Shown here one piece after another: positions 8,081 to 54,429 of a stretch of DNA of 64,000 nucleotides (within the stretch, counting starts at the first letter, position 1; the number at the start of each line of letters is the position of its first letter). Made by a program: the position numbers and the translations under genes. The notes beneath the pieces are model-generated. The model worked only from the letters and a program-made list of their open reading frames with translations, did not search any database and was not told where the DNA came from. Origin of the DNA: Oscillatoriales cyanobacterium (lineage in GTDB: Bacteria > Cyanobacteriota > Cyanobacteriia > Cyanobacteriales > Laspinemataceae); the NCBI GenBank assembly GCA_011390955.1, contig JAABRM010000001.1, positions 46,694 through 110,693 on the forward strand, read 5' to 3'.

Positions 8081-8084
8081 GCAT

Positions 8085-8143: not shown

Positions 8144-8179
8144 GAAGTCCTGAATGCAAACAACAGGGAGCCGCCAATC

Positions 8180-8330
8180 GAGCGTCTTGTGCGTCTTGTG
8201 CGTCTTGTGCGTCTTGTGCGGGGGAGCGGCGGTTCGGCTTCGCTCACCGACCGAGGAGCAGAGGAGCAGAGGAGCAGAGGAGCAGAGGAGCAGAGGAGCA
8301 GAGGAGCAGAGGAGCAGAGGAGCAGAGGAG
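8180..8330. repeat. two adjacent 9-mer tandem arrays: (GCGTCTTGT)x4 and (GAGGAGCAG)x~9
   Basis: Direct reading. A second (GAGGAGCAG)n + 'gagagagtgaa...ttttcacttttcact' block occurs at 57305-57400. Confidence 0.85.
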
Positions 8331-8410
8331 AGAGTGAATAGTGATACCTATTTTCACTTTTCACTTGTACGGGCGAATGCGAGAACGCCCCTACGAATGC
8401 ATCACTTTCC

Positions 8411-8503
8411 CCAACCAACAACCAACAGCAAACAACAACTAACAACAAACAACAACCAACAAACAACAACCAACAACAAACAACCAACAAACAACAAACA
8501 ACA
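8411..8503. repeat. STRR-like CAACAAA/CCAACAA array (right arm)
   Basis: 'ccaaccaacaaccaacagcaaacaacaactaacaacaaacaacaacc...'. Confidence 0.8.
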
Positions 8504-8513
8504 GGAAAAAACT

Positions 8514-9317
8514 ATGACCAATTCATACACAGAAAGCGATCGCGAATGGTGGGCGCAACAATGGGTCGATTTATTAAATTCTTATCGGTTTAAAAAGCGC
8601 TTAGAACGAGGGCGTCGCTATGCGATCGAAGGAAATGTGCGATCCATTGACTTTTCCGAGCAAAAAATCATCGCAAAAGTTCAAGGCACTGAAGCTGAAC
8701 CTTATGAACTTTCTCTATGGCTGGATCGGTTTACCGCAGAAGATTGGCAATATGTAGTCCAAAGTTTATCGGAAAAAGCGATATTTTCCGCTAAGTTATT
8801 AGCCGGAGAAATGCCCGCCAATATTGAGGATGTTTTTGCAGCCAATGGGCTCAGACTATTTCCCTTTAAATTATCGGAAATTCATTCCCGCTGTAGTTGT
8901 CCCGATAAGGCTAATCCCTGTAAACATATTGCAGCGGTCTATTATTTGTTGGGCGATCGCTTCAGTGAAGACCCCTTTTTATTATTTCAATTGCGCGGTC
9001 GCAGTCAAGCAGAACTGATTGCTAACCTCCGGGAAATTCGCGGAACCGAAGCATCAGAAACCACAGCGGAAACGGATAATATACCGGAAAAAACTCCGGT
9101 AATTTTTGCAAAATCTCCCCTTAATTTAGAAGATTTTTGGCAATACGATCGACAGTTAGATTCTGGGTTAGTCGTGATTGCCCCACCCCCAAGTAGTGAA
9201 ACTATTTTAGATGTGCTCGGACCGATTGGATCCCCCGTCGTGACTGAGTATTTGCAAAGCGTTTATCCGCTGATTAGTCAACAGGCAATTCTGACCGGAT
9301 TAAATCGTGATGACTAA
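8514..9317 (+). CDS. SWIM zinc-finger domain protein
   Basis: ATG at 8514 with upstream 'aggaaaaaact'. SWIM CxCxnCxH motif 'CSCPDKANPCKHIAAV'. The caller's longer ORF (8154) only adds translation of the repeat arrays. Confidence 0.7.
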   Translation: MTNSYTESDREWWAQQWVDLLNSYRFKKRLERGRRYAIEGNVRSIDFSEQKIIAKVQGTEAEPYELSLWLDRFTAEDWQYVVQSLSEKAIFSAKLLAGEMPANIEDVFAANGLRLFPFKLSEIHSRCSCPDKANPCKHIAAVYYLLGDRFSEDPFLLFQLRGRSQAELIANLREIRGTEASETTAETDNIPEKTPVIFAKSPLNLEDFWQYDRQLDSGLVVIAPPPSSETILDVLGPIGSPVVTEYLQSVYPLISQQAILTGLNRDD

Positions 9318-9523
9318 CTCTTGTGACGCAGCGAAATAACTCAGGGAACCCAAAATAAACCAAATTCCTACAGTGGGTATTGCTCACCGTAGGAATTTGG
9401 CTGCTTAATTTTTGGCTGTTTAATTACTGATTAGACAATTCTGGCATAATTTTTGCCGAAAAGTCACCCTAACAAAACCATTACAATGGCTAAAACCTTT
9501 ACTATATAAAGCTTTGACATTAA

Positions 9524-25123: not shown

Positions 25124-26596
25124 GTGTTATCGTTTTTCTGTGGCTCATTCTGTGACTCATTAAATAACTGTGGTTTTCCTGATGCTATGCAGCCTAAAAA
25201 AATGTCAATATCTTGCTTATTCAAAGCAAAATTATCTCAAAAAATTGTCTTTTGGGTATTTCTTAGTTTGATCGCCATTGAAGCTTTAATTTTAATTCCT
25301 TCAGTGCAACGACGAGAAGAAGAATTACTAGATCAATTAAGCGAGGTATCATCAGCAAAAGTAAATTGGCTAATTGAAACTTATCCGATGATTTCAAATC
25401 AAGAATTTATAGTGCAATTACGCCGACTAAAAGTTGAAACGATGTTTGGCAAAATTATCGGCGGAATTCTCTATGATAGTCAGGGAAAAACTCTCCATCA
25501 ATTTGGCGAAATACCCTCCCTTGATTGGGAACAGGTAATGAGCGATCGCCTCAAACTCAAGGAGTCGCATCTAGACCGATATGATATTGCCTGGAAATTA
25601 GAACAAATTCCGGGAAACTACATATTAATTCTGCGCCATGACTTATCTTTAATTGGCATAGAATTATGGGCATATAAAGCTAGAATAACTGGATTAGTAG
25701 TATTAATTTCTATCGTCGTAACTTCCACCACTATGTTTGTCTTAGGAAAAACGGTAATTTTACCTGTATTGCAACTGCGCGATGACATCCTAGGGGCAGG
25801 AGAAGCCCTGAGTCAAGACTTACCCGCCCCAAACTTTTATTCTTGTTCCGTGCAAAGAACTGATGAATTAGGAGAAGTCATGCAAGCGTTTAAGCAAATG
25901 TTTGAAAGAGTCCATCAAGAAATTGCCGATCGCAAACAAGCGGAAGAAATGTTACGAGGCGAACAGCAAAAATCGGAAACTTTACTCTTAAATATTTTAC
26001 CCATTGCGATCGCCGAAAAATTAAAAAATGGAGAAAATCACATTGCCGAGGGATTTGCAGAAGTGACGATTTTATTTGCAGATATTGTCGGATTTACCCA
26101 ACTTTCCCAACAAATATCCCCGGCTGATTTAGTCCAATTATTAAACCATATTTTTTCTGCCTTCGATCGCTTAAGCGAAAAACATCAATTAGAAAAAATA
26201 AAAACCATTGGGGATGCGTATATGGTAGTGGGAGGTTTGCCCGTTCCCAGACCGGATCACGCCGAAGCGATCGCAGCAATGGCCCTGGATATGCAAGGTG
26301 CGATCGCCGATTTTAATGCCCGAAATAAATCGGATTTAACCATCAGAATTGGCATCAATACCGGGGCGGCGATCGCTGGAGTCATTGGCACCAAAAAATT
26401 TATCTATGACCTATGGGGTGATGCGGTCAATACTGCCTCTCGCATGGAGTCCCACGGCATTCCTGGAGAAATTCAGGTGACAGAATCTACCTACAATCTG
26501 CTGAAACACAAATATTCTTTCCAGCCACGGGGAAAAATTCATATTAAAGGCAAAGGAGAAATGATGACCTATTTACTGAAAAAATCAGATGGTTAG
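25124..26596 (+). CDS. membrane-anchored class III adenylate/guanylate cyclase (CHD domain)
   Basis: CHD motifs 'VTILFADIVGFTQLS' ... 'KIKTIGDAYMVVGGLP' ... 'IRIGINTGAAIAGVIGTKKFIYDLWGDAVNTASRMES'. Two N-terminal hydrophobic segments. Start may be the ATG at ~25187 ('MQPKKMS'). Confidence 0.8.
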   Translation: MLSFFCGSFCDSLNNCGFPDAMQPKKMSISCLFKAKLSQKIVFWVFLSLIAIEALILIPSVQRREEELLDQLSEVSSAKVNWLIETYPMISNQEFIVQLRRLKVETMFGKIIGGILYDSQGKTLHQFGEIPSLDWEQVMSDRLKLKESHLDRYDIAWKLEQIPGNYILILRHDLSLIGIELWAYKARITGLVVLISIVVTSTTMFVLGKTVILPVLQLRDDILGAGEALSQDLPAPNFYSCSVQRTDELGEVMQAFKQMFERVHQEIADRKQAEEMLRGEQQKSETLLLNILPIAIAEKLKNGENHIAEGFAEVTILFADIVGFTQLSQQISPADLVQLLNHIFSAFDRLSEKHQLEKIKTIGDAYMVVGGLPVPRPDHAEAIAAMALDMQGAIADFNARNKSDLTIRIGINTGAAIAGVIGTKKFIYDLWGDAVNTASRMESHGIPGEIQVTESTYNLLKHKYSFQPRGKIHIKGKGEMMTYLLKKSDG

Positions 26597-26705
26597 ACTA
26601 ATTTTGACCTTTTTAGAGATAGAATAATAGTCAGTAGACCGCTAACAGTGGCCGATTGACCGTGAAAGCAAAAAAATAGAGAAATTTCTAAAAGCGCTCT
26701 CAAGT

Positions 26706-28334
26706 ATGAATAACTCCCCAAACTACCCTTCAGGCCCAGTTCCCCTGGACTCTCCATTTTATATTCCCCGTCCCCCGGTTGAAGAACTCGTCTACGAAGA
26801 AATCGGCAAACCCGGTGCGCTGATTCGGATTAAAGGGGCGAAGGAAATGGGCAAATCTTCCTTAATGTTAAGAATTGTGGACTATGCCAAAAACCTAGGA
26901 TACCAGATTGTTGCCATAGATTTTCAACAATTTGATGCCGATTGTCTGAATAATTTAGATCGATTTCTCCGCAGCTTTTGCCTGCAAGTGACTAAACAGT
27001 TAAACCTCGAACCTAACCTTGATGAATATTGGGATGAGGATATCGGCAGTAAGATCAGTTGTAGCCTTTATTTTCGCTGGCATATCCTGGAAAATCTCAC
27101 TTCTCCCCTGGTCTTGGTACTTAATGAAGTCAACGAATTATTTGAATATCCCCAACTCACCCAAGATTTTTTGCCCTTACTGCGATCGTGGTATGAAGAA
27201 GCCAAACAAGTCCCAATTTGGCGATCGCTTAGATTAATCGTCGTCTATACCACCGAAGTTTATGTTCCCCTAAAAATTACCCAATCACCTTTTAACATTG
27301 GTTTACCTGTACAATTAGCGGATTTTACCGCCGAACAAGTAGAAGAGTTGGCAAAATTACATCAATTAGAGTGGAATGAGTCGCACACTGAAAAATTAAT
27401 GGCAATAGTAGGAGGTCATCCGATCTTAGTCCGATTAGCATTATATCACTTGGCCACTCACCCAAAAGAAACCCTGGAAAACCTGCTAAACTCCGCTGCC
27501 AGCGATACAGGCATTTACACAGACCATTTGCAGCGGCTTTCTCGTACTCTGGAAGAAGACCCCGAATTAAAAATAGTGTTCCAAAACTTGATTTTGGGGA
27601 ATAAGTCATTAGAGTTACCGCAAAATTTATCCTATAAATTAGAAAGTTTAGGATTAGTCAATTTGACAAACAAGCAAGTCAAAATCAGCCAGGAATTGTA
27701 TCAAAAATATTTTTGGCAAAAAATTCAAGCAGAAATCGACTTACCGGGAATAAAAGACGCCAAATTTCCGGCTAACATTATGACAAGTTTAGCAAAAGAA
27801 TATCAAAAACTAAAACAACTGGCCGAATTAGACGAACTCACACAATTAGCCAATCGAAGAAGCTTTGAAAAAAAACTCCAAGATTACTGGAACCAGTTGT
27901 CTGACACCCAAGAACCTTTATCCCTAATTATCGGTGAAATTGACTTTTTCAAGGTTTACAAAAGTTACTACGGAGAGAAACAAGCCAACCATTGCTTGCA
28001 GGAAGTAGCCCAGGCATTTATTCAGCCAAGTAAAAGTGAGCACACCCTGGTTGCGCGTTATGGGGATGCTCAATTTGCCGTAATTTTACCGAGAATCGAT
28101 AAATCCGCAGCAGTTGAAATTGCTAAAAATATCCAAGCCCAAGTGCAAGGGTTAAAAATTGAACTGAATATTCCTGATTATTCCGGTTTTCCTGATTCAG
28201 TCGTCACCGTCAGTTTAGGCTTAACCACGATGATGGTGACGGCAAATAGCGCTCTAGATGAGTTAATTTCCCGCACTGGACAAGCATTAAAATCTGCCCA
28301 AATCATTGGCGGAAATTATCTTAAATCTGTTTAA
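26706..28334 (+). CDS. 'AAA-like' (PF14516-type) N-terminal ATPase domain fused to a degenerate GGDEF domain
   Basis: N-terminus 'GALIRIKGAKEMGKSSLMLR' (P-loop-like) resembles the N-terminus of 28755-32321. C-terminal GGDEF fold 'LDELTQLANRRSFEK' but active site reads 'RYGDAQFAVILP' instead of GG(D/E)EF, so it is predicted catalytically inactive. Confidence 0.75.
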   Translation: MNNSPNYPSGPVPLDSPFYIPRPPVEELVYEEIGKPGALIRIKGAKEMGKSSLMLRIVDYAKNLGYQIVAIDFQQFDADCLNNLDRFLRSFCLQVTKQLNLEPNLDEYWDEDIGSKISCSLYFRWHILENLTSPLVLVLNEVNELFEYPQLTQDFLPLLRSWYEEAKQVPIWRSLRLIVVYTTEVYVPLKITQSPFNIGLPVQLADFTAEQVEELAKLHQLEWNESHTEKLMAIVGGHPILVRLALYHLATHPKETLENLLNSAASDTGIYTDHLQRLSRTLEEDPELKIVFQNLILGNKSLELPQNLSYKLESLGLVNLTNKQVKISQELYQKYFWQKIQAEIDLPGIKDAKFPANIMTSLAKEYQKLKQLAELDELTQLANRRSFEKKLQDYWNQLSDTQEPLSLIIGEIDFFKVYKSYYGEKQANHCLQEVAQAFIQPSKSEHTLVARYGDAQFAVILPRIDKSAAVEIAKNIQAQVQGLKIELNIPDYSGFPDSVVTVSLGLTTMMVTANSALDELISRTGQALKSAQIIGGNYLKSV

Positions 28335-28345
28335 TTGATTCAATC

Positions 28346-28380
28346 AAAACGCAACAATTGCGTTTCTATATTTTTCCATT
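28346..28380 (+). terminator. putative rho-independent terminator
   Basis: 'aacgcaacaattgcgtt' hairpin followed by 'tctatatttttcc', 12 nt after the stop at 28334. Confidence 0.45.
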
Positions 28381-28735
28381 CTATTCCCTGTTCCTGATTC
28401 CCTGTTCCTGATTCCCTATTCCCTATTCCCCGTTCCCTTTCCCTATTCCCTATTCCCCGTTCCCTATTCCCTATTCCCTATTCCCTATTCCCCGTTCCCC
28501 GTTCCCTTATGACTTACGCAATGACTCTATATATGGGGTATTGGTGCGTTACGCTTCGCTAACGCACCCTACAAATAGCATTTATGCGTAAGTCCTGTCC
28601 CTATTCCCCGTTCCCCGTTCCCCGTTCCCCGTTCCCTATTCCCTATTCCCTATTCCCTATTCCCTATTCCTTATTCCTTATTCCCTATTCCCTATTCCCT
28701 ATTCCCTATTCCCTATTCCCTATTCCCTATTCCAT
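28377..28735. repeat. STRR-like TTCCCTA/TTCCCCG heptamer array interrupted by an ~90-bp inverted-repeat-flanked insert
   Basis: Arrays 28377-28500 and 28597-28735. Insert 'gacttacgcaatgac...ggtgcgttacgcttcgctaacgcacc...atttatgcgtaagtc' has 10-11-bp terminal inverted repeats and an internal hairpin. Confidence 0.8.
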
Positions 28736-28754
28736 AGCCAAAACCAAATAAACT

Positions 28755-31700
28755 ATGAGTCAATACTCTTACCAAGTCGGGGGAAGTTTAGCTAGTGATG
28801 CCCCCACTTATGTGCAACGTTGCGCCGATCGCCAACTTTATCAAGGTTTAATTAATGGGGAATTTTGCTATGTGTTTAATTCCCGACAAATGGGTAAATC
28901 TTCTTTGCTGGTACAGACAAGAAAACGGTTAGAAGAACTGGGATATCTCTGCACTACCATTGACTTGACTAAAATTGGTAGTGAAAATATCACCCCTGTC
29001 CAGTGGTATAAAGGGATGATGACTGAGTTATGGCAAGGATTCAATTTAATTGGCAAAGTGCGCTTCAAAAATTGGTGGCAAGAAGTTGAAGATATGTCCT
29101 TGTCCCAAAAATTAAGTCAATTTATTGAGTCAGTAATTTTCCCGAATGTTGCGGCAGAAAAAATTTTTATTTTTGTCGATGAAATTGACACAATTCTGGG
29201 GTTAGATTTTTCCGTTGATGATTTTTTTGCCCTGATTCGGTTTTGCTATAATCAACGGGCGGTTAATTCGGAATATCAGCGGCTCAGTTTTGCTTTATTT
29301 GGCGTTGCTACCCCTAGCGATCTAATTAAAGATAAAAGCCGAACACCTTTTAATATTGGCACTGCCATAGATTTAGGTGGATTTGAACCGGAACAAGTTC
29401 AGCCACTCTTGAGAGGATTAGAGGAAAATGTCAGTCATCCCGAAATTGTTTTAAAAGAAATCTTAGCCTGGACTAATGGCCAACCATTTCTGACGCAAAA
29501 ATTGTGTCATTTAGTGATTCGGGAATTTAAAGTTATGAAAAATGATGTAAAAATTCCCCCAGGCATGGAAGCTTTTTGGGTAGAAAGTTTAGTCAAAAGT
29601 AAAGTAATTAACCATTGGGATGCTCAAGATGAACCGGAACATTTAAGAACTATTCGCGATCGCCTCTTACGCAACCAAAAACGAGCCGGTAGATTATTGG
29701 GAATTTATCAGCAGGTATTACAATATGATGCCCTCAACCATGATGCCCTCAACCCACCCTTAGCCAAAAAAGATGCTGAGGGAATTTCCTGTGATGATAG
29801 CTTAGAACAAATTGAATTAATTTTATCAGGATTAGTCGTCAAAAAACAGGGATATTTGCAAATAAAAAACCGCATTTATGGCGAAGTATTTAACTTAGAA
29901 TGGGTAGAAAAACAACTCTCCGGTCTGCGACCTTATTCCCAAACCTTTGATGCTTGGGTCGCTGCCGGACAAACGGATCGATCTCGACTTTTACGCGGTC
30001 AAGCCCTCAAAGATGCTCAACTTTGGGTCCAAGGCAAAAGTTTAAGCGATTTAGATTATCAATTTTTTGCCAAAAGTGAAGAATTGGATCGCCAAGAAAT
30101 GCAAATAGCCTTAGAAGCAGCCAGAACCCAAGAAGTAGAAGCCCGACTTGCTGAAGAACAAAAAAGGCTCAAACAAGAACAAAAAACCGCAAAATTGCAA
30201 CGGTTATTCTTAGGGGTTGTTACATTTGCTTTCGCCATATCTTCGGGAATTGGCTTATTTGCTTTCTGGCAATATCGACAGGCAAGAATCAGTGAAATTA
30301 TGGCTTTGGCTTCATCTTCTAAGGGCTTGTTTGCCTCCAATAAGCACTTAGAAGCGATGATCGCGGCAATTAAAGCCCAACGGGGCATCGACTCTCTGGG
30401 TAAAGTCGATCCCAAAATCGCCACTCAAGTGGAAACTGCCTTAACCCAAGCGATTTATGGCACGAACGAATATAATCAGCTTGTGGATCATCAAGGCAGT
30501 GTTTTGAGCGTGGATATTAGCTTAAATGGCCAGTTAATTGCTACGGCTAGTAACGATAAAACCGTGAAAATTTGGCAGCAAAATGGCAAATTATGGAAAA
30601 CCCTGCCACATTCAGCCACGGTGCATCGAGTTGCCTTTAGTCCAGACAACAAATCCCTCGTTTCTGGGAGTTTAGATGGGACGGTTAAGCTGTGGAATGT
30701 GGAAGGGAAACTGTTACAAGATATTCAGGGACATAATGCCCCAGTTTGGGGAGTTGCTTTTAGCCCCAATGGGCAAATGTTTGCTTCGGCAAGTGGCGAT
30801 CGCACCGTAAAAATTTGGCGCACCGACGGCACATTGTTAACCACTTTAACCGGACATCAACAAGCAGTTTGGAATGTTGCTTTCGACCCTGAAAGTCAAA
30901 TTGTCGCTTCTGCTGGAGTCGATCGCACCGTCAAACTTTGGCAGATTGACGGTAAGTTACTCAAAAACCTAGAAGGACATCAGGGAGCAGTTTGGGATGT
31001 CGCGTTTTGCCAGAAAACTAACTTACTCGTATCGGTTAGTTCCGACAAAACCGCAAAACTGTGGCAAAAAGATGGCACTTTGGTCAGAACTCTTCCGGGG
31101 GAAGATGTCATCATCGGCGTTGATTGTAGCGAGAACGGCGAATACATTGCCACCAGTGGCAAAGATAATGTGGTCGCACTGTGGAAACCCGATGGCACTT
31201 TTGCCAGAAACTTAAGAAAACATGACGCGGTGATTCGGGATGTGGCCTTAAGAACTGATGGCTTGATGGCCGCTTCTGCCAGTGATGATGGCACGGTGAA
31301 ACTATGGCAACGGAATATCTATTTATTAATTCCGCTTTATGGCCATGAGGATACGATTTGGGATTTGACCGCGAGTCCCGATGGGAAATTCATCGCCTCT
31401 GTGGGAGATAATAGTCTCCGACTCTGGGAAGCCAATGGCAAGTTGTGGCAGCAAATCGAGAGTTCAGACCAAGGAATTCGGGCTGTGGCTTTTAGTCCAG
31501 ATTCACAGATCGTCGCCATGAGCAAGAATGCTCAAATCGAGCTTTGGGATGTCAAAAATACTCAGAAATCCCCTACAGAACCGAGAAGAGTATTGACGGG
31601 ACATCAGGCTGCCGTATATGCGATCGCCGTCAGTCCCGACGGTCAAACCATCGCCTCTGGTGGTGACGACAAAACCATTAAACTTTGGCATCTGGACGGA

Positions 31701-32321
31701 AAACTACGCCAAAGTATTGTCGCCCATGATGAAAGAATTTGGAAAATAGCCTTTACCCCAGACGGTCAAGCGATCGCCTCTGCCAGTGAAGATGGCACCG
31801 TGAAATTATGGCAAACCGATGGCACACTTTTGGCCACATTGAATCATCAAGGGGGTGCGGTTTGGGGCGTCGCCATCAGTCCCCAAGGGGATTTGATTGC
31901 CTCTAGCAGTCGGGATGACACCGTAAAACTCTGGAAATTAGATGGCACCCTAATGAAAACCATTCCCGGGCAGAGTAAAGGCATCACCAGAGTCGCCTGG
32001 AGTCCCGATGGTCAAACCATTGCCACTGGAGGTGTGGACAATACGGTGAAACTGTGGAACCGGCAAGGAGAATTACTCGCAACTTTGCCCGGACATACCG
32101 GCATGGTGGTCAGCGTTGCCTTTACCCCCGATCGTGAATTTGTGGTTTCTGGGAGCGACGATCGCAGCGTGATTATTTGGGATTTAGCAAAAATTCATAC
32201 CCTGAAAAAACTGACTTATGCCTGCGACTGGGTACGGGATTATTTGCAGAACAATCCTCTGGTGGAAGCAAAAGACCGAAACCTTTGTGATGGGGTGAAA
32301 AGCGATGGGGTGAAAAAATAG
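28755..32321 (+). CDS. 'AAA-like' (PF14516-type) N-terminal ATPase domain - coiled coil - TM segment - ~14 WD40 repeats
   Basis: N-terminus '[28 protein letters not shown]'. Coiled-coil '[24 protein letters not shown]'. TM '[22 protein letters not shown]'. Long array of 'SPDGQxIASxSxDxTVKLW' units. Confidence 0.85.
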
Positions 32322-45736: not shown

Positions 45737-46750
45737 GTGAGGATTTATCTGAAGAAATATCCTAAACTCTCACAGTCATTAATTCACCCTGGAAAAATTA
45801 CTCATGTCATTATGACTCCACCTTCTACTGTATCGACCAATAAGCCCAAACCAGAATCAGCCTTAAATCATCGTTGGCAACCGAATTGGCTTGGCCCTTT
45901 GGCATTGCTTGGCCCATCAGGAGTTTGGTTAGTGTTATTGTTGGTGCTGCCCACCTTGGTGATTTTTCAACTAAGTTTGGTGCCGGAAATCCAACCAGGG
46001 GAAAAAGTGATTCCCTCCGGGCTGGATAATTATTGTCGAGTCTTGGGATTCGATCGCTGTCAATGGGCTAATTTCGATCCGGTTTATTTACAAGTGATTG
46101 GCCGATCGCTCATGCTGGCATCTGGCACCACCAGCATTTGTTTGATCCTCGGATTTCCTGTGGCTTACTGGTTGGCCCTGCAAACTCCCAAACGGTGGCA
46201 AAATTTACTGTTATTAGGTTTTGTTTTGCCTTTGTGGACTTCTTCCCTGCTGCGGTCTTATGCCTGGAAAACCATTTTGCGGCCTACTGGGGTACTGAAT
46301 AGCATTATCGCCACCGTGGGACTACCCCCGACGGATTTGTTGCACTCTACGTCAGCGGTACTGATTGGCATGAGTTACAGCTTTTTGCCTTATATGGTAC
46401 TGATTCTTTATGCTTCTTTGGAAAAACTCGATCGCCGTTTGTTGGAAGCGGCGGCGGATTTGGGCGCTAATCCCGTGGAAGTCTTTTTGAAAGTAACCGT
46501 GCCCCAAACCCTGCCGGGAATTGCAGCGGGTTGTTTGCTGGTGTTTATCAGCGGTCTGGGGGATTTTGTCGATCCCGAACTTCTCGGTGGTGCCTCCAGC
46601 ATGACGGTATCTCGGTTAATTTACGATCAATTTTTGGGGGCAGCGCGGGATTGGGGCTTTGGTTCGGCCCTGAGTATGGTGTTAATTACGGCGGTGAGTA
46701 TTGCGATCGCGTTGATGATTCGCTTTGGTGATGCCAGTCCGAAAAAGTAA
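45737..46750 (+). CDS. potB: spermidine/putrescine ABC transporter permease
   Basis: Six hydrophobic segments. EAA-like loop 'LEAAADLGANPVEVFLKVTVPQTLPGI'. True start possibly downstream of 45737. Confidence 0.8.
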   Translation: MRIYLKKYPKLSQSLIHPGKITHVIMTPPSTVSTNKPKPESALNHRWQPNWLGPLALLGPSGVWLVLLLVLPTLVIFQLSLVPEIQPGEKVIPSGLDNYCRVLGFDRCQWANFDPVYLQVIGRSLMLASGTTSICLILGFPVAYWLALQTPKRWQNLLLLGFVLPLWTSSLLRSYAWKTILRPTGVLNSIIATVGLPPTDLLHSTSAVLIGMSYSFLPYMVLILYASLEKLDRRLLEAAADLGANPVEVFLKVTVPQTLPGIAAGCLLVFISGLGDFVDPELLGGASSMTVSRLIYDQFLGAARDWGFGSALSMVLITAVSIAIALMIRFGDASPKK

Positions 46751-46751
46751 T

Positions 46752-47075
46752 TCTTTGTTATTTGTTATTTGTTGATTGTTGATTGTTATTTGTTGATTGT
46801 TGATTGTTGATGGTTGATTGTTGATTGTTGATTGTTGATGGTTGATTGTTGATTGTTGATTGTTGATTGTTGATTGTTGATTGTTGATTGTTGATTGTTG
46901 AACAACGAACAACTAACAACCAACAACTAACAACCAACCAACAACGAAAGAATCCCTACCCAAAGAATCCCTACCCAACAACTAACAACCAACCAACAAG
47001 AACCAACAACCAACCAACAACAACCAACAAACAACCAACAACAACCAACAAACAACCAACAACAAACAACAAATC
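46752..47075. repeat. large STRR-like inverted array (TTGTTGA/TTGTTAT arm then CAACAAC/CCAACAA arm) inside the pot operon
   Basis: Starts 2 nt after the potB stop and ends 33 nt before the potC start. Confidence 0.85.
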
Positions 47076-47107
47076 CTATAATAATTGATTAATTGGAATA
47101 GATTTCA

Positions 47108-48044: not shown

Positions 48045-48222
48045 GTAGGGGCGAAGCATTCCGGCAGATAGCTTATTGCTGAAACGATTAATTTGACTAC
48101 CGGAATGCTTCGCCCTTACTGCGGTCATGCTTGACCCTTTGTAAGGGAAGGGCGAAGCATGACCGCAGATGATTTATTGCTGAAACTATTAATTTGACTG
48201 CGGTCATGCTTCGCCCCTACAG
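48045..48222. repeat. composite nested palindromic element (GTAGGGGCG...CGCCCCTAC outer stem; inner hairpins with compensatory stem variants and a shared loop)
   Basis: Hairpin 1 'GCGAAGCATTCCGG-[cagatagcttattgctgaaacgattaatttgacta]-CCGGAATGCTTCGC'. Hairpin 3 'GGCGAAGCATGACCGC-[agatgatttattgctgaaactattaatttgac]-TGCGGTCATGCTTCGCC'. Alternative hairpin 2 'GCGGTCATGCTT-N20-AAGCATGACCGC' shares a strand with hairpin 3. Confidence 0.7.
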
Positions 48223-48230
48223 TTGTCTAT

Positions 48231-49619
48231 CTACTGATTTTTCACATACTGTTTAAATAAGCCTTGCACGATAAATAGGGACGCACCATTATTATCGCTG
48301 ATTTTTTCGATTAAACCCCGTTTCCGCAAAGACTGGATCGCGGTCAAAAAGTCAGCATCCGGTAGTAGGGGCGAATGGCCATTCGCCCCTACGGGTTTCT
48401 GGAAAATATCGGCGGCTTCTTGGTTGACTAACCACCCCATGACTATTTTTTCAGGTTCAGATAACCGTTGATAATATTCTTGTAATCTGGGTTCTAAGTC
48501 TCCGAGAAATAACGTAGGATAAGATAAGAAGCGATCGACGCTGCGGTTAAATAAGTCGTCAATGGTAGCCGCAACAATATTTAACCAGGACGGGTTGCCG
48601 CTATAAAGTTGGATCAGTTCCCCCCATTTATGCCGATCCTTTAAGTCTTTATTGGTCAGTATTTCCGTTGCCGCTTCTCCCAACCCACCCAGTTGTAAGC
48701 TACGGCAATGGCGGTTTTCTCCTTCTAAGGTGGCAATTTCTGTGGGCTTTTCCCAACTGAGGATGAGGAAGCAACTTTTGTGAGGCGATCGCGCCATTTC
48801 TTTGAGAAATTTCCCATAACTTTCGGCTTCTGGCAGATAAGTGCCTGCGAATTTTTCAGGGGCAAACAGTTCTTGGAAGTCATCGAGAATAATCAGACAA
48901 CGATTTAAACGCAAATAGTCGATAAGGGATGATGATTTGGTTTCCTGATTTTGGGAAAAAAACTCAATTAAATTGGTTTGGAAAGATTTTAGGGTGAGAG
49001 TTTCGCTACAGTTGCGCCAAAGGATATAGTCAAAGTTATCTTTAGTTTGTTCTACCAGTTCTCTAGCGAGGGTGGTTTTGCCTATTCCCGGCAAGCCAGA
49101 CATATTTACAAGGCGGATTTTTTCGGCCAAAATCCACTTTTTTAGGGTGGTTATTTCTGCAAGGCGGTTATTATGATGCTCCCATTCCGGGGCTTCGGTT
49201 AAATTGTGGCGTTGTTCTGGTTGTTGGCTAGGGGAATTTGTGGAGGAATTGGCAGAGGGCGATCGGGTTTTTCCTGTGTCGTAATACCTACTATCTCCAC
49301 AAAAGTTTATTTCACCCTGATTAAAATTACTTTGGACAAAGTTTTGAATCTTAGAATTAGAGATATAAAAACGTTCCATTGTAGCGCGGAAGTTTTTCTT
49401 ATCTATTTTTTCGTCTAACTCATCGGATATTAATTTCCATAAACTAGCCGCTACTCGCTTAACATTTGGTTCGCTACAGTGATAATCCTCGGCGATATCT
49501 CTGTATTTTTGACTATCCCAAGCCCCTGCTAAAATTGCCTGTTGCAGATTATTTAAGTGCGCTCCTGTTTTGGCAAATACTAATTTATCAGCCCATGCGA
49601 GGACTTCTTTAACATCCAT
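48231..49619 (-). CDS. STAND NTPase (NB-ARC type) with N-terminal helical domain and no C-terminal repeats
   Basis: Walker A 'MSGLPGIGKTTLAR'. Walker B 'CLIILDDFQELF'. It contains an in-frame perfect palindrome 'gtaggggcgaatggccattcgcccctac' (48365-48392) encoding 'VGANGHSPLL'. Confidence 0.75.
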   Translation of the reverse strand: MDVKEVLAWADKLVFAKTGAHLNNLQQAILAGAWDSQKYRDIAEDYHCSEPNVKRVAASLWKLISDELDEKIDKKNFRATMERFYISNSKIQNFVQSNFNQGEINFCGDSRYYDTGKTRSPSANSSTNSPSQQPEQRHNLTEAPEWEHHNNRLAEITTLKKWILAEKIRLVNMSGLPGIGKTTLARELVEQTKDNFDYILWRNCSETLTLKSFQTNLIEFFSQNQETKSSSLIDYLRLNRCLIILDDFQELFAPEKFAGTYLPEAESYGKFLKEMARSPHKSCFLILSWEKPTEIATLEGENRHCRSLQLGGLGEAATEILTNKDLKDRHKWGELIQLYSGNPSWLNIVAATIDDLFNRSVDRFLSYPTLFLGDLEPRLQEYYQRLSEPEKIVMGWLVNQEAADIFQKPVGANGHSPLLPDADFLTAIQSLRKRGLIEKISDNNGASLFIVQGLFKQYVKNQ

Positions 49620-50033
49620 CAGCGATACATATCTTAGTAAGTTTTAGGCAATTTTACTACCTTTTGCACCCTTTTGCTACCTGTTGCAACTAAACTTTAC
49701 TTTTTTATACCAACGGGGGGCGAAAGAGGATGCTTCCGAAGAGGCGATCGAAGCATCTCCTAGTTATTTTTACGGATTTTTGCTACCTATTGCAACTTTT
49801 TGCTACTTAAATATACTTTTTGCAACCAATCATGGTTTAGGAAGGTCGGTTAAAGTCTATACCAGAATAGACTTTTTTAGACTTTATTAATCAGCAGAAA
49901 TATTTAATAATAAGGTATAAATTTAGCTGAGATTTTATAGGAATTTTCATAGATAAAATTCATCCGAATTATATGAAAAGCCCTATCACCTTAGAAAAAT
50001 ATAATTATTAATGCGGCAGGCCGTATTATCACT

Positions 50034-51281
50034 ATGGAACAGTGGATTAACTTTGATCGGTCGCTCAATCAACGCTTGAACCGAGAGGCTTTAGATCAAC
50101 AACAAAGCAAAGCTAAAAACTTTTCTCTTGAAGGCCATGCTTTAGTTCGAGGTGTAGCCGGGTCTGGCAAGTCACTGGTCTTGAGAAATCGAGTTGAAAA
50201 ACTCATTGATGATGGCTATGATAATATTTTAGTGCTGTGCTATAACCGCTTTATGAACGGTTGGATTGACTCAAAACTAAGAGAAAAAAGGTTAAACTTA
50301 GATATAACCTGTAAAACCTTCCACAGTTGGGCATATCGAATTGGATATGATTATAAATGGGACGATCATCCGGATTCCCGACAAAAAATTATCAACTTAG
50401 TCGAAGAAAACTCAAAACATCGCTATCAAGCAATTTTAATTGACGAAGCGCAGGACTTTTACGACGAATGGTTCCAAGCAATGCTACCAGCAGTCAATCC
50501 AGACACAAATTCTATTTTTTTTGTTTATGATAACACTCAATCAGTTTATGGGCAACCTCATCGGCTTAAAGACAGTTGGACATGGAAATCTCTTGGGTTT
50601 ACAATTCCTGGTGGTCGTTCTCAAATATTTGAGCTTAACTATCGAAACACCCCGGAAATCTTGGAATTAGCTTGGCAATTTATTTTACCTTATTTGTCTA
50701 ATGCTAAGATGAAAATTTCCAAGCGGGCTGAGGCGGGAGGAAACATTGGTCACATAGTCGAACCTGTAAAAAAAACTGCCCGCAGTTCTTCGATTAAACC
50801 AATACTGGTTAAAGGTGATATATCTGCAAGTATTATCGCTAATCAAATTAAGTTGGCATTAAATAGCCATCCAGAATCTTCAGTTGGCGTTTTGCTACAT
50901 CCCAATGAGGATAAAAGTTTTAAGAAAAAAATTAGTGATTGTTTGTGGGATCTAAATATCGATCATCATGCACCAATGCGTTCAATAGAACGAAATAGTA
51001 ACGTTGTAGATAGACCATTTGTCATCATTGATTCCTGGAATGCTCTTAAAGGAGTTGAATTTGATGCAGTGATCATTGCCGGGATAGATAAGGTAAAAGA
51101 TTTACCAGACACCGATGAAGATTTCAAAGAAAAAGCTGGGTTATATACAGCAATGACACGGGCAAGAGATCATCTGATTATGTTATATGATAATGAAACT
51201 CCAGTAGTCAAGCAGATTGAAAAAATTCTAGCATCCCCAGATGTTTTATCTTTCGATATAGATATGAGGCAATCAGCTTAA
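50034..51281 (+). CDS. compact SF1 (UvrD/Rep-like) helicase-core protein, 415 aa
   Basis: Motif I 'GVAGSGKS'. Motif II 'ILIDEAQDF'. Motif VI 'LYTAMTRARDHL'. All core motifs are packed in ~400 aa with no obvious 1B/2B accessory insertions. Confidence 0.7.
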   Translation: MEQWINFDRSLNQRLNREALDQQQSKAKNFSLEGHALVRGVAGSGKSLVLRNRVEKLIDDGYDNILVLCYNRFMNGWIDSKLREKRLNLDITCKTFHSWAYRIGYDYKWDDHPDSRQKIINLVEENSKHRYQAILIDEAQDFYDEWFQAMLPAVNPDTNSIFFVYDNTQSVYGQPHRLKDSWTWKSLGFTIPGGRSQIFELNYRNTPEILELAWQFILPYLSNAKMKISKRAEAGGNIGHIVEPVKKTARSSSIKPILVKGDISASIIANQIKLALNSHPESSVGVLLHPNEDKSFKKKISDCLWDLNIDHHAPMRSIERNSNVVDRPFVIIDSWNALKGVEFDAVIIAGIDKVKDLPDTDEDFKEKAGLYTAMTRARDHLIMLYDNETPVVKQIEKILASPDVLSFDIDMRQSA

Positions 51282-51289
51282 TTTGTTTA

Positions 51290-51510
51290 GTGAAAAGGCG
51301 ATCGCTTTCTTATTTGATAGAAAGGCGATCGCTTTTTTGCTGCGAAAAAGAAACCGGGTTTCTGTTGTGGAAATAACAGTTAACTGTGACAGCACAAAAA
51401 GAAACCCGGTTTCTGTGCGATCGTTTCTGTGGCAAGAAGCGATCGCGCAGCGTTCCTGCGAGGGAATCGCTATTTTATTTAGCAGAAAGGCGCGATCGCG
51501 CTTGTTATCT
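51290..51510. repeat. ~220-bp structured cassette-flanking repeat, copy A
   Basis: Contains paired 'agaaaggcgatcgc' direct repeats. Also contains 'gctgcgaaaaagaaaccgggtttctgttgtggaaataacagttaactgtgacagcacaaaaagaaacccggtttctgtg' with two AGAAACCGGGTTTCT palindromes, and HIP1 sites. Confidence 0.75.
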
Positions 51511-51645
51511 ATTGTCGCAGTTGGGTAGTTGAGTTTATGCTTTTGGTTCAAGTTAATATTTATATGTTAACATGGTATATCAAACACCTACATTATACCC
51601 TTTGATAGTTTGTGTAGGAGCGTGACGAATTCAAAAGAGGTAAAA

Positions 51646-52008
51646 ATGAGATTAAAAGTCAGTGAAAATGGTCTGGTCATTCCGCCATCCTTATTGACGG
51701 GTTTAGAGGAGGTGGAAATTCGCAGAGAAGGAGACGTAATTAGCATCTTCAAAATCAATAATATTATTGAAACCATAGAGACTATTGATATTTCGATAGT
51801 TAAGGGAGAAGAGGCTCAAATTTTGCTGGAAGAGAAACTAAAAAAAATTCAGGAATCGAAAAAAAAGCGATCGCTCGATCCAGCCAAAGTTGATCTAGGG
51901 TCAAGATTTAGCCAGTTGTGTCGAGAAATCCAAGCGTTACACGCAGATAATCCTTTATCTGAAGCGGAGATTGCAGCAGAAATTGATGCGGTGAGGAGAG
52001 GTGAGTGA
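51646..52008 (+). CDS. AbrB/MazE/SpoVT-like type II antitoxin candidate
   Basis: Strong RBS 'aagaggtaaaa' before ATG 51646. N-terminal 'MRLKVSENGLVIPPSLLTGLEEVEIRREGDVISIF' swapped-hairpin-like. Stop overlaps the PIN gene start by 4 nt. Confidence 0.55.
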   Translation: MRLKVSENGLVIPPSLLTGLEEVEIRREGDVISIFKINNIIETIETIDISIVKGEEAQILLEEKLKKIQESKKKRSLDPAKVDLGSRFSQLCREIQALHADNPLSEAEIAAEIDAVRRGE

Positions 52009-52424
52009 AGATTATCATCGATACAAATGTTTTGGTTTCTGCGACCATTGCCGATGGAAAGCCAGAAGATACCATTAATTTTATTATAGGGAGTGATGAA
52101 TGGGAATGGATTGTATCCGACGCAATTCTCCATGAATACCGAGAGGTCTTAAATCGTCGAAAGCTTAAGTTAAGCGAGACGGTTAAACAAAATTGGTTAA
52201 ATATTGTTGAGTTAGCAACCACAAAAATTGATGTAGCAGTTAAGGTAAATTTTCCTAGAGATCGCAAAGATGAAAAATTTTTAGCTTGTGCGGTTGTCGG
52301 TGAGGCTGATTTTTTAATTACAGGCGACCGTGACTTTGAAGAAATGCAAGCACTTTTACCCAACACAATCATTATTTCCGTTGCTATGTTTAAAAAATTG
52401 GCGATCGATGCTGTTGAAAGCTAA
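52005..52424 (+). CDS. PIN-domain toxin candidate (VapC-like)
   Basis: 'MKIIIDTNVLVSA' N-terminal acidic motif. C-terminal 'FLACAVVGEADFLITGDRDF'. Confidence 0.65.
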   Translation: MKIIIDTNVLVSATIADGKPEDTINFIIGSDEWEWIVSDAILHEYREVLNRRKLKLSETVKQNWLNIVELATTKIDVAVKVNFPRDRKDEKFLACAVVGEADFLITGDRDFEEMQALLPNTIIISVAMFKKLAIDAVES

Positions 52425-52464
52425 AAGCCGGGAGGGAGAATTTATTCCCAGTGGTTTTTGCGAA

Positions 52465-52650
52465 ATCGCTCTCTTATTTTCCAGAAAAGCGGTAAGCGGA
52501 GCTATGTCCAAAGGGCTTATCGCCTCTTGGCTGCGAAAAAGAAACCGGGTTTCTGTGTACCCGTTTCTGTGGCAAGAAGCGTTCGCTATGCTGTCAGGCA
52601 AGCACGCTATTTTATTTCCAGAAAAGCGATCGCTATTTTTCTGCTGACTA
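52465..52650. repeat. cassette-flanking repeat, copy B (shorter; lacks the central 'ttgtggaaataacagttaactgtgacagc' segment)
   Basis: 'ggctgcgaaaaagaaaccgggtttctgtgtacccgtttctgtggcaagaagcgttcgc...attttatttccagaaaagcgatcgc'. Confidence 0.7.
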
Positions 52651-52940
52651 ACTTTATAATAAAATAGGAAGATATGGCTCAAACAGGAGAGTAAAAACGA
52701 ACAGCATCTTCAACGAATTAGTCCAGTACAGACAGCAACTTGGTCTACCACCTGCGGGCAGCGAAGCCGACAGATCGACCATAGCGAAATTAGAAATAAA
52801 CGCTCAAATTTTCTTCGGCATTAAATCGAGGTGGAGTTAATTCTATGGCTTGGCAATTAGGCATAGAAGAATTAGAAATTGTTACTCCGAGTGGCACTAA
52901 GACCATAACAGTTAAACCACCAAAAACCAGGAGAGAATAA

Positions 52941-53360
52941 ATGTTTGTATCAGACTTATCAGTGGAAAAATGGGTTGGCAATCAAGATGAAGGGACTTTG
53001 ATTTCCAACCCAACTTGGCAAGAAATAAAATCAGCTATTTGCGAATTAAACGGCAACAGTCAAACTTTAGTAACCTTGGGTGCTGATGAAGAAATGTACA
53101 TGAGTATTGGTGGCGGCGCCGCCGGTAAATATATTGTTAATGTCACTTTCGATGGCATGAATTTTTATAACTTAGTCGATCGCTCCCAACCAGAAAAAAT
53201 GGACCAACTGGCGATCGGCGGACAGTTGGGAAATTATTCAGCTAAACTCTGCGTGGATTTACAAGCCGCTTTGTTAGTCGCTAAAACTTTTGCCCAATCC
53301 GGGAAACTTGAAGAGTCAGTGATTTGGGAAGATTTCCAGTCATTAGCGATGGTGGGATAA
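52941..53360 (+). CDS. hypothetical protein, possibly an Imm1-like polymorphic-toxin immunity protein (orphan)
   Basis: Pattern 'TWQEIKSAICELNGNSQTLVTLGADEEMYMSIGGGAAGKYIVNVTFDG' resembles the Imm1 family layout. Assignment by memory only. Confidence 0.4.
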   Translation: MFVSDLSVEKWVGNQDEGTLISNPTWQEIKSAICELNGNSQTLVTLGADEEMYMSIGGGAAGKYIVNVTFDGMNFYNLVDRSQPEKMDQLAIGGQLGNYSAKLCVDLQAALLVAKTFAQSGKLEESVIWEDFQSLAMVG

Positions 53361-53379
53361 GCGAGTTATTTGATTACCC

Positions 53380-53590
53380 CATTCATGCGATCGCTTTCTT
53401 ATTTGCTAGAAAAGCGATCGCTTATTGGCTGCGAAAAAGAAACCGGGTTTCTGTTGTGGAAATAACAGTTAACTGTGACAGCACAAAAAGAAACCCGGTT
53501 TCTGTGTACCCGTTTCTGTGGCAAGAAGCGTTCGCGCAGCGTTCCTGCGAAGAAATCGCTATTTTATTTCCAGAAAAGCGATCGCGAACA
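53380..53590. repeat. cassette-flanking repeat, copy C (full length, ~95% like copy A)
   Basis: Direct comparison with 51290-51510. Confidence 0.75.
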
Positions 53591-53668
53591 TAGCAAGTAA
53601 ACGTAGGTAGCCGATCGCACCAAAATGGATTATAATCGAATAGCTTAAATCAGTCGAGGTAATGATTA

Positions 53669-53878
53669 ATGAAATTAACAGCAACAGAACAGGGCTTATT
53701 AATTCCTAAAGACATATTAGGAGACAGTCAAGAATTTGAACTTACCCAAGAAAAAGGAAAAATTATTATTACGGTCATCAAAAAATCATCTTCTATTTGG
53801 GATTTAGGTTCAAATCCTGTGGAATGTGATGTAAAAGATGCCGCCATCAACCACGATCGTTATCTGTATAACCAATGA
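53669..53878 (+). CDS. AbrB/SpoVT-like antitoxin candidate
   Basis: 'MKLTATEQGLLIPKDILGDSQEFELTQEKGKIIITVI'. Overlaps the next gene by 4 nt. Confidence 0.5.
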   Translation: MKLTATEQGLLIPKDILGDSQEFELTQEKGKIIITVIKKSSSIWDLGSNPVECDVKDAAINHDRYLYNQ

Positions 53879-54297
53879 AAAACATTTATTTTTTGGATAC
53901 CAGCTATATTTTGGCTCTGGAAATTAAAAATGAAGCGGATCATAAACAAGTCTTACAAAATTGGGTTATTTTAGCACAATCAAAACCCGTTTTAGTAACT
54001 ACAACATACATTTTTGATGAAATTGTCACTTTCTTTAATAGCCGAAACCTTCATCATAAAGCAGTGGAAGTTGGTAATCGCCTCTTGTCAAGTCCCGATA
54101 TAGAGTTAGTAGAGATTAATACAACTTTATTTAATCAGGGCTGGCAATATTTTCAAAAATATCAAGACAAGTCTTATTCCCTCACTGATTGTTTATCATT
54201 TATCGTTATGGAAGAACGAGGGATTATTACGGCTTTAACCTTAGATCATCATTTTATTCAAGCTGGATTTCAAATTTTCCCATCATCACTTAATTAA
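53875..54297 (+). CDS. PIN-domain toxin candidate (VapC-like)
   Basis: 'IYFLDTSYILALE' N-terminal Asp. 'DCLSFIVMEERGIITALTLDHHF' C-terminal acidic motif. Confidence 0.65.
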   Translation: MKNIYFLDTSYILALEIKNEADHKQVLQNWVILAQSKPVLVTTTYIFDEIVTFFNSRNLHHKAVEVGNRLLSSPDIELVEINTTLFNQGWQYFQKYQDKSYSLTDCLSFIVMEERGIITALTLDHHFIQAGFQIFPSSLN

Positions 54298-54299
54298 AA

Positions 54300-54420
54300 A
54301 TACGGTTTAATTTCAGAAAAGCGATCGCTTTTTTATTTCTAGGAAAGCGATCGCTATTTTATTCCCGCATAAAGAAACCGGGTTTCTTTGGTGGAAATAA
54401 CAATTTATCGCCTAATTTAG
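54300..54420. repeat. cassette-flanking repeat, copy D (partial)
   Basis: 'agaaaagcgatcgcttttttatttctaggaaagcgatcgctattttattcccgcataaagaaaccgggtttctttggtggaaataacaa'. Confidence 0.65.
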
Positions 54421-54429
54421 GGAGCGGGT

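Follow-up and report, generated by a model that had tools for sequence, protein, structure and literature searches.

The window analysed here is a 64,000-nucleotide stretch of the genome of an Oscillatoriales cyanobacterium (contig JAABRM010000001.1, positions 46,694 to 110,693 of the forward strand), and the subject of this analysis is a pair of divergently oriented genes within it, which encode a STAND ATPase with a helix-turn-helix (HTH) domain at its N-terminus and a compact helicase of superfamily 1 (SF1). Both open reading frames (ORFs), and the AT-rich spacer from which they diverge, were recovered as the initial annotation of this DNA had described them (Table 1). In DNA sequence the pair locus shares 96% identity with that of Planktothricoides raciborskii CP159837.1, with which it is also syntenic, and in both genomes a pot-type ABC transporter is followed by the STAND gene and then by the divergent helicase gene.

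Table 1 Features of the divergent locus and its downstream flank, in window positions. NOD, nucleotide-binding oligomerization domain; NBD, nucleotide-binding domain; pLDDT, predicted local distance difference test.
Feature	Position	Strand	Basis
HTH_VMAP-M9/NB-ARC STAND ATPase, 462 aa; NOD only, no C-terminal sensor in the model	48231..49619	-	ORF, Pfam, model
N-terminal HTH_VMAP-M9 domain, residues 1-88	49356..49619	-	AlphaFold model (pLDDT 85-93, four to five helices)
NOD module (NBD, helical domain, winged helix), residues 137-462	48234..49211	-	Motifs, secondary structure, Foldseek
Divergent intergenic region, 414 bp, 33% GC (window 43%)	49620..50033		Sequence
Promoter-like element TAGCAA-17-TAAAAT beside the STAND gene, within ~10-bp repeats (GTAGCAAAAG GGTGCAAAAG GTAGTAAAAT)	49651..49679	-	Sequence reading
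Hairpin with HIP1 site (GATGCTTC...GCGATCG...GAAGCATC), inserted between two promoter-unit copies	49729..49757		Sequence
Second, distal copy of the promoter/repeat unit	49749..49826		Direct repeat D4 (49623-49680 vs 49749-49806, 78% identical)
Promoter-like TTGCAA-16-TATACT, directed at the helicase	49790..49817	+	Promoter scan; within the distal unit
Palindrome AAGTCTA-N8-TAGACTT, candidate operator for the HTH	49853..49874		Only one in the window, 0 expected
Compact SF1 (UvrD-like) helicase, 415 aa, NERD-less relative of NERD+UvrD helicases	50034..51281	+	ORF, Pfam, PADLOC, NCBIfam
Small cassettes separated by a repeat element: VapB-like/PIN 51610-52424, Imm1-like 52941-53360, VapB-like/PIN 53669-54297	51283..54413		Repeat families D1-D3, D9

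The two proteins of the pair

The STAND protein is matched in Pfam by NB-ARC (2.9e-10) and NACHT (4.6e-9), both above cut-off, and its motifs are intact and conserved, with GLPGIGKTT (Walker A) at residue 175, LIILDD (Walker B) at 242 and a GxP-type GNPSW at 341. With the P-loop NBD, the helical domain bearing the GxP motif and the winged helix all present, it belongs to the NB-ARC clade of STAND NTPases. Its AlphaFold model, computed with 22 homologues (mean pLDDT 78), is laid out as a helical N-terminal domain over residues 1-88 (pLDDT ~90), a disordered linker over residues 89-132 and then the NBD, helical and winged-helix domains, the chain stopping right after the last of these at residue 462. 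Foldseek matches of this model include the NB-ARC modules of plant NLRs, CED-4, Apaf-1 and MalT, and no repeat domain was detected by the Pfam scan. As modelled, the protein is an HTH plus a NOD only, and its first description as a sensor-less STAND without C-terminal repeats was correct in that respect; what that description had missed is the N-terminal HTH_VMAP-M9 domain (PF26355), which precomputed Pfam annotation records both for the identical protein in the database and for every close homologue. Because the HTH occupies the effector position, the protein is not a bare NTPase, and a putative DNA-binding or regulatory role is suggested for it.

STAND proteins of this kind keep a length of 450-470 aa; such homologues occur throughout Oscillatoriales and are abundant in multicellular cyanobacteria. 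An exhaustive HMMER search with the HTH only gave ~1295 protein clusters at 50% identity, in which the domain is almost always N-terminal and the commonest protein length is 440-490 aa. HTH_VMAP-M9 heads NB-ARC+TPR, NACHT+NCH2, TIR+AAA_35, AAA_35+FHA and AAA_35+GGDEF proteins, and sister architectures also carry WD40. The window HTH has a sub-threshold match to Sigma70_r4_2 (0.021) and its homologue at locus L091 one to GerE (0.0065), the latter annotation being precomputed for some members of the STAND family. A literature search found no paper naming VMAP-M9 or describing this gene pair.

Three further observations concern this family. Among the proteins P0295, P0326 and P0251, the TIR domain of TIR+AAA_35 STANDs is preceded by HTH_VMAP-M9, and one 541-aa protein holds four tandem HTH_VMAP-M9 copies, with no other domain known to Pfam. 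Next after the orthologous HTH-STAND of Kamptonema formosum comes a gene that encodes a Tse2-like ADP-ribosyltransferase toxin domain (PF18648; L085, 6539-6985), another hint that the STAND family accompanies conflict-type genes.

The helicase carries the motifs first read in it (GSGKS at residue 43, DEAQD at 137 and TRARD at 375) along with Ia, III, IV and V; SF1 motifs Q, I, Ia, II, III, IV, V and VI are all present and invariant across 20 family members, and the protein belongs to SF1. Pfam matches comprise UvrD-helicase (3e-14), UvrD_C (5e-9) and SLFN-g3_helicase (PF09848, 1.1e-5); AAA_19, UvrD-helicase and UvrD_C lie above cut-off and SLFN-g3_helicase just passes (25.3 bits against 24). 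The structural model (pLDDT 80, predicted template modelling score 0.83) is composed of two RecA-like core domains with small insertions and minimal 1B and 2B, for which the best Foldseek match is the SLFN11 helicase domain (3e-14, template modelling score 0.55 over 390 columns), followed by UvrD and PcrA. The model is without any extra domain, in agreement with the initial annotation, and a hidden nuclease at the termini, which that annotation had proposed to look for, was rejected, only a ~7-residue disordered tail (409-415) following the two RecA-like domains and no nuclease match being returned by Pfam.

The NCBIfam scores of the helicase, 34 bits for uvrD (cut-off 1144), 35 for pcrA (911), 27 for rep (951) and 42 for HelD (419), lie so far below the cut-offs that it cannot be counted among the housekeeping products of uvrD, pcrA, rep or helD. 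It also has 415 aa as against the ~650-750 aa with full 1A/1B/2A/2B domains that characterise UvrD, PcrA and Rep. Nor is it a truncated uvrD/pcrA pseudogene, a possibility that had been named at the outset as one that would refute the initial proposal, since the family keeps a fixed length (~400-420 aa) and a fixed N-terminus (always MxQWI(N/D)F, with the start ~20 residues before the Q motif) across many cyanobacteria, among them Microcoleus, Tychonema, Nostoc, Anabaena, Pleurocapsales and Leptolyngbyaceae.

The best PADLOC match of the helicase is C3a187 'NERD+UvrD' (2e-41), in which residues 6-399 fall on model positions 184-557 only, while model positions 1-183, the NERD part, are without a match. 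Outside cyanobacteria, almost all relatives at 24-30% identity (Elusimicrobia, Chloroflexota, Thermodesulfobacteriota and others) have 620-690 aa and an N-terminal NERD motif, and among the matches of ~28% identity on plasmids of Vibrio and Ralstonia there are some that bear the annotation nuclease-related domain-containing DEAD/DEAH box helicase. The window helicase is a NERD-less relative of this NERD-helicase family. Two other origins were discarded: a phage origin, for which just three weak phage matches were found, and a NERD remnant in the spacer, where the 68-aa ORF at 49684-49890 is not frame-conserved in L043 and the spacer is non-coding.

Recurrence of the pair and its intergenic region

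A helicase-profile scan of one genome per species, covering 185,579 species genomes of all bacteria and archaea, yielded 80 loci, of which at least ~52 are cyanobacterial; it relied on fixed patterns, and the locus counts are therefore lower bounds. These loci were searched with the STAND protein, all neighbouring ORFs were clustered and contigs encoding close homologues were looked up. A metagenome scan supplied 19 loci, most without upstream flank, and little was gained from it.

Wherever the helicase is at least ~70% identical to that of the window and enough upstream flank is available, the divergent gene encodes an HTH_VMAP-M9 protein (13 of 13 loci). For helicases that are 74-98% identical to the window's, it is an HTH_VMAP-M9/NB-ARC gene of 455-472 aa at every locus examined. 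This STAND form of the pair occurs in at least four contexts, probably five: the pot operon setting in P. raciborskii, the same as in the window; a histidine kinase gene and higBA at L043; a CLC channel gene and tex at L091; lptC and rpiA at L093-95; and L082, a short contig. As the pairing recurs in several unrelated genomic contexts, it exceeds chance; it is real, and it is confined to one helicase clade. The co-occurrence elsewhere, on which the initial annotation had made its proposal depend, is thereby borne out for different contexts and limited to that clade, and among more distant helicase orthologues an HTH_VMAP-M9 neighbour was seen in one of ~38 (L025).

The partner is not always a STAND. 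In Microcoleus and Tychonema, whose helicase is ~70% identical, the divergent gene encodes a 269-aa protein of HTH_VMAP-M9 and pentapeptide repeats (L001, 4964-5773, minus strand; also L003, L004, L005, L039, L045 and L113), often with a DUF4351 (Rpn-like) gene between it and the helicase. The C-terminus of this protein is NERD-like over the 26-residue motif PDF(L/I)xxH...ILE(I/V) only (E 5e-4) and has no Pfam or PDB support as a nuclease; going by this motif, the C-terminal region is only possibly a nuclease.

It can be seen from the identity matrices that the helicase is the constant partner (74-98%) and that the STAND partner ranges from 39% to 93%, the helicase-linked STANDs not being monophyletic. 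The NOD of the window protein is 70% identical to unlinked Kamptonema and Aerosakkonema proteins and 54% identical to the L043 NOD, though the L043 helicase is 95% identical. In this partner swap the HTH (71% identical) and the spacer were kept, the NOD being just 54% identical. It appears that paralogues replace one another freely in the STAND half, next to a constant helicase.

A different association of the helicase was observed in Nostocales, where a full NERD+UvrD helicase (624 aa, C3a187 1.8e-268) lies directly downstream of the mini-helicase and is oriented alike at L007, L008, L009, L011, L013, L027 and L049, at about 6000-9400 in each. In several of these loci a prokaryotic viperin (pVip, 5e-97) and its kinase VakA lie before or between the helicases, a McrB-like AAA_5 gene is often near, and one Nostocales helicase copy resides on a Sphaerospermopsis plasmid. 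The mini-helicase and the NERD+UvrD helicase may constitute a separate two-helicase module. With the helicase standing beside pVip/VakA, McrB-like genes and NERD+UvrD helicases, the defence-island flavour is real in Nostocales; the defence-island-like neighbourhood first proposed for the window holds for those loci and is not supported for the window locus, which is surrounded by ordinary metabolic and chemotaxis genes and has only toxin-antitoxin-type cassettes nearby.

The spacer between the two genes is kept in L081 and L043 and partly in L082, with a mean column identity of 81% over four aligned sequences, and in L043 it is kept although the STAND protein there is 56% identical. In the ~170 nt before the start codon, every STAND of the window HTH subtype has a palindrome AAAGTCTA-N6-TAGACTTT, an AAAAAGTnTA box and a promoter-like block of the form (T/A)TGCAA-17-TAAAAT set in 10-bp repeats, and the identity of the upstream gene makes no difference. 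With TTGCAA as its first hexamer, the block recurs on contig L082 and upstream of the STAND orthologues of Kamptonema, Aerosakkonema and Microcoleus, whichever gene is the neighbour, and Planktothrix has a degenerate form (TTGCCA/GTATGA). The corresponding element beside the window STAND gene scored below threshold in the promoter scan.

A tandem duplication of the promoter unit, its two copies separated by the HIP1 hairpin, occurs in the window, P. raciborskii and L043, and this hairpin is missing from the STAND upstream regions of the other genera compared. Four of the five window matches of TTTTGCWAC lie inside this spacer. A reading of these 10-bp repeats as helicase-specific operators was revised: they are part of the promoter region of the STAND gene itself, duplicated in this lineage.

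Among the 114 fetched loci, all matches of the palindrome but one are upstream of HTH_VMAP-M9 STAND genes or in the corresponding spacer of two short helicase contigs (L083 and L084); in L085-L087, where the insertion does not occur, it is positioned at -135 to -114. Since its variants alter one arm without compensation, the palindrome fits a protein-binding site better than an RNA hairpin, and a hairpin or terminator is made less likely by these one-sided changes and by the AT-rich stem. Nothing meaningful was returned by an Rfam search. The L091/L093 subtype, whose HTH is 40% identical, has other repeats (AAAAGTATC, AAAAGTACG and AAAAGTATG) and a shorter AAAGT...ACTTT palindrome; the Microcoleus loci have two to four copies of ACTTTTTNTCAC repeats; and helicase loci without an HTH neighbour have no such repeats. 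These sequence comparisons show that the HTH gene has a conserved control region of its own, which lies between both genes in paired loci. The helicase may be regulated through this shared region.

Surroundings of the locus

The toxin-antitoxin cassettes reported downstream of the helicase in the initial annotation were confirmed as two AbrB-like/PIN pairs, accompanied by an Imm1-like ORF. The PIN genes (52005-52424, PIN_3 1.3e-17 and TIGR00305 1e-19; 53875-54297, PIN 9.9e-12) are overlapped by 4 nt by their upstream VapB-like/AbrB-like ORFs, as in VapBC-type pairs. The palindrome AGAAACCSGGTTTCT, AGAAACC(C/G)GGTTTCT, has nine sites in the window (18 matches on both strands) against 0.04 expected. 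Six of the nine are in 51282-54429, where each cassette is followed by a HIP1-rich repeat element of 115-270 nt containing the palindrome. In P. raciborskii the segment 51431-53413 is replaced by two other small ORFs, the pair itself being 96% identical, and the cassette-array repeat also follows the helicase in the metagenome contig L082. The stretch 51282-54429 has the look of a hotspot, bounded by repeats, at which cassettes turn over, and no integrase is seen nearby. On the far side of the array lie cheB and a NAD kinase gene.

Elsewhere in the window, a run of signalling genes at 25124-32321 includes an adenylate/guanylate cyclase gene and genes for an AAA_35+GGDEF protein (26706-28334) and a 1188-aa AAA_35+WD40 STAND-like protein (28755-32321). 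The latter two are the other STAND-like genes scanned in the window; they are of AAA_35 type, with NB-ARC not among their listed top hits, and the view of the HTH-STAND as a second NB-ARC STAND in this stretch was accordingly dropped. Just 3' of the STAND stop codon, at 48045-48227, two copies of a 78-nt element (81% identical) each form a 19-23-bp GC-rich inverted repeat (GGGCGAAGCAT...ATGCTTCGCCC), a stretch not kept in P. raciborskii. A tandem DNA repeat in the intergenic region between the two ABC permease genes (46680-47090) makes the ORFs there, on either strand, read as repeated heptapeptides such as QQSTINN.

Interpretation and comparison with known systems

The analysis shows the domain content with its intact motifs, the conservation of both families and of the cis elements, and the repeated occurrence of the pair in differing contexts. 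These results lead us to favour, tentatively and with a confidence that stays a little short of even, a mobile two-gene module in which the HTH-STAND would be a DNA-binding ATP switch controlling the helicase, plausibly in defence. We infer that, within a group of filamentous (Oscillatoriales-type) cyanobacteria, the pair is conserved and moves horizontally as a module. In such a module the HTH-STAND would bind the shared intergenic region as an ATP-dependent oligomerising switch, for which MalT, AfsR and the cyanobacterial XssQ are precedents, and would set its own expression as well as that of the divergent helicase; the helicase would be the nucleic-acid-acting component, most plausibly directed against phage or another DNA or RNA invader. 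In Synechocystis, XssQ, a STAND whose HTH is N-terminal, activates neighbouring genes through single or tandem 9-bp AAGTTxxAC sites, as established by knockout, quantitative PCR, RNA-seq and electrophoretic mobility shift assays (PMC8205485).

The module reading is supported by the unbroken pairing within the helicase clade, by the different contexts, by the exchange of partners with HTH and spacer kept, by the fixed distance of the palindrome, which is unique in the window, by promoter repeats kept across genera and by the plus-strand promoter-like site directed at the helicase. The flavour of a conflict system comes from the wider architectures of HTH_VMAP-M9 (TIR-AAA_35), the NERD relatives of the helicase, its Nostocales neighbours, the plasmid copy, and the inclusion of HTH domains, by Kaur et al. 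2020 (PMC7159879), in a list of effector modules without enzymatic activity that belong to NTP-dependent conflict systems of multicellular bacteria.

Several observations weigh against this interpretation. Most helicase orthologues have neither an HTH nor a STAND neighbour, and in Leptolyngbyaceae the helicase is in a stable housekeeping synteny between rsgA and a DUF445 gene, with menG-like genes also present. No helicase gene adjoins the STAND orthologues, 54-68% identical over their full length, of Kamptonema, Aerosakkonema, Planktothrix, Limnospira and Microcoleus. Since these unlinked orthologues carry the same 5' elements, the elements belong to the STAND gene and alone make no link to the helicase. 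No STAND-helicase fusion was found among the top 120 helicase homologues (all ~350-440 aa), nor any fusion with a helicase among 10 longer or mid-length HTH_VMAP-M9 proteins sampled. The likeness of the HTH to GerE and sigma r4 is sub-threshold, its DNA binding being putative, and XssQ was rejected as a homologue of the window STAND (E 0.16, hhalign probability 0.4%) and serves as an analogy and functional precedent only. The PADLOC system models identify no known system in the pair, as had been anticipated when it was first noticed, and neither a sensor domain nor a trigger can be named for the module. Our confidence is held where it is because both families mostly occur apart and because trigger and sensor cannot be named.

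One alternative, which we consider unlikely, is that the two genes are independent neighbours: a self-contained, autoregulated HTH-STAND from a large, recombining family of paralogues would stand beside the helicase through shared descent and the joint transfer of a short DNA segment only. The conservation of the STAND promoter and palindrome whatever the neighbour accords with it, as do the different neighbours in five genera (the upstream genes of unlinked STANDs encode a CHAP/FG-GAP protein, a GTPase, a LOG-like protein and others), the very large size of the family, seen in the ~1295 clusters for the HTH alone, and the prevalence of helicases without a STAND. The pair is nevertheless found with at least four, and probably five, sets of flanking genes that are unrelated to one another, and the partner of the helicase has been replaced by other STAND subfamilies and by a non-STAND HTH_VMAP-M9 protein; because adjacency and divergent orientation survive these swaps, hitch-hiking is insufficient as an explanation.

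It is likewise improbable that a regulator has been joined to a housekeeping-type accessory helicase acting in repair, at replication forks or in transcription conflicts, in the manner of Rep, PcrA or HelD, with the STAND tuning it to stress and no defence involved. The 74-98% identity within the clade with all motifs invariant, the Leptolyngbyaceae synteny with rsgA, DUF445 and menG-like genes, the weak NCBIfam similarity to HelD, UvrD and PcrA, and the ordinary metabolic and chemotaxis genes around the window locus would all suit such a role. They are opposed by NCBIfam scores far below cut-off even for HelD (42 bits against 419), by a patchy distribution (~52 of the 185,579 species genomes, as a lower bound), by the plasmid copy and the pVip/VakA, McrB-like and NERD-helicase neighbours in Nostocales, and by the nature of its closest relatives outside cyanobacteria, which are fusions with a NERD nuclease of a type characteristic of defence islands.

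A more specific two-gene immune module of multicellular cyanobacteria, one that would be new to the literature and in which the minimal helicase would be the nucleic-acid sensor or effector for a sensor-less NLR-like STAND with an HTH transcriptional output, is in our judgement quite unlikely. Very unlikely is a design in which the HTH is a homotypic adaptor (CARD-like or effector-associated) through which the NOD-only STAND recruits HTH_VMAP-M9 proteins (nuclease-like, TIR, GGDEF) encoded elsewhere, the helicase being an upstream nucleic-acid sensor or an unrelated neighbour: the domain does head many effector and STAND architectures and stands four in tandem in one protein, the Microcoleus HTH does head a pentapeptide protein with a possible NERD-like C-terminus beside the helicase, and CED-4, a sensor-less STAND using an adaptor domain, is among the best fold matches, but Pfam classes the domain as an HTH with weak GerE and sigma r4 matches, the palindrome and repeats found upstream of these genes are conserved and keep a fixed distance, and the helicase has no HTH_VMAP-M9 domain.

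With the two-gene module still preferred, its halves can be set beside known systems. The helicase is closest to the NERD+UvrD helicases (PADLOC-DB PDLC01087, 'C3a187'), which give its best profile match and share its SF1 core; these have ~560-690 aa with a NERD nuclease of the PD-(D/E)xK type at the N-terminus, whereas the window helicase has 415 aa and no NERD, and none is present in the upstream spacer. SLFN11 (Schlafen group 3/DUF2075), the best structural match, has a similarly compact SF1 core without large 1B and 2B; it differs in its 15% sequence identity and in its N-terminal RNase domain, for which the window helicase has no counterpart. GajB of Gabija is likewise a UvrD-like SF1 defence helicase (~500 aa) with partial PADLOC and PDB matches at C-terminal motifs, and had been invoked as an analogue at first. 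That analogy did not survive, as the matches are limited to motifs II-III or V-VI, and the partner in Gabija is GajA (OLD/TOPRIM) and here an HTH-STAND; no GajA-like gene is found in the window region or at any related locus, and Gabija membership was rejected.

Regulators such as MalT, AfsR, GutR and XssQ resemble the window STAND in combining an HTH with a STAND NTPase module, whereas the window protein lacks any sensor or ligand-binding domain at its C-terminus and its DNA binding is putative. XssQ, with an N-terminal HTH, binds 9-bp sites, and the window gene has conserved upstream repeats and a palindrome; XssQ differs in its Xre-type HTH, as read from its N-terminal sequence, and in its NACHT module with NCH2. 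Antiviral STANDs (Avs, bacterial NACHT and NLR-like proteins) share the NB-ARC/NACHT-type NTPase core. Avs-type proteins have a large C-terminal sensor (TPR, WD40, LRR or other), by which a phage protein is recognised, and an enzymatic N-terminal effector, whereas the window chain ends at residue 462 without a repeat match, carries a non-enzymatic HTH and obtains only marginal, P-loop-level matches in PADLOC. A 2026 survey of defence STANDs described sensor-bearing Avs families with transcription-regulator STAND clades interspersed among them. CED-4 matches in its NB-ARC fold and in consisting of an N-terminal output domain and a NOD only, with no sensor; its output domain is a CARD adaptor and it is restrained by CED-9, whereas the window STAND has an HTH and no named inhibitor or partner.

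If the two genes are mere neighbours, the locus is an ordinary one. If the pair is a unit, it would be a STAND/NLR-like switch without a fused sensor and with a DNA-binding output, a new architecture for bacterial NLR-like systems, whose helicase partner resembles the motor part of those NERD-nuclease helicases that are frequent in defence islands. It would also offer a way into the HTH_VMAP-M9 STANDs of ~460 aa in filamentous cyanobacteria, a family that is very large and unstudied and for which the conserved palindrome and promoter repeats are a directly testable candidate operator. Set against the systems above, the pair may be an undescribed defence or regulatory module built of known kinds, namely STAND-based modules and SF1 defence-type helicases.

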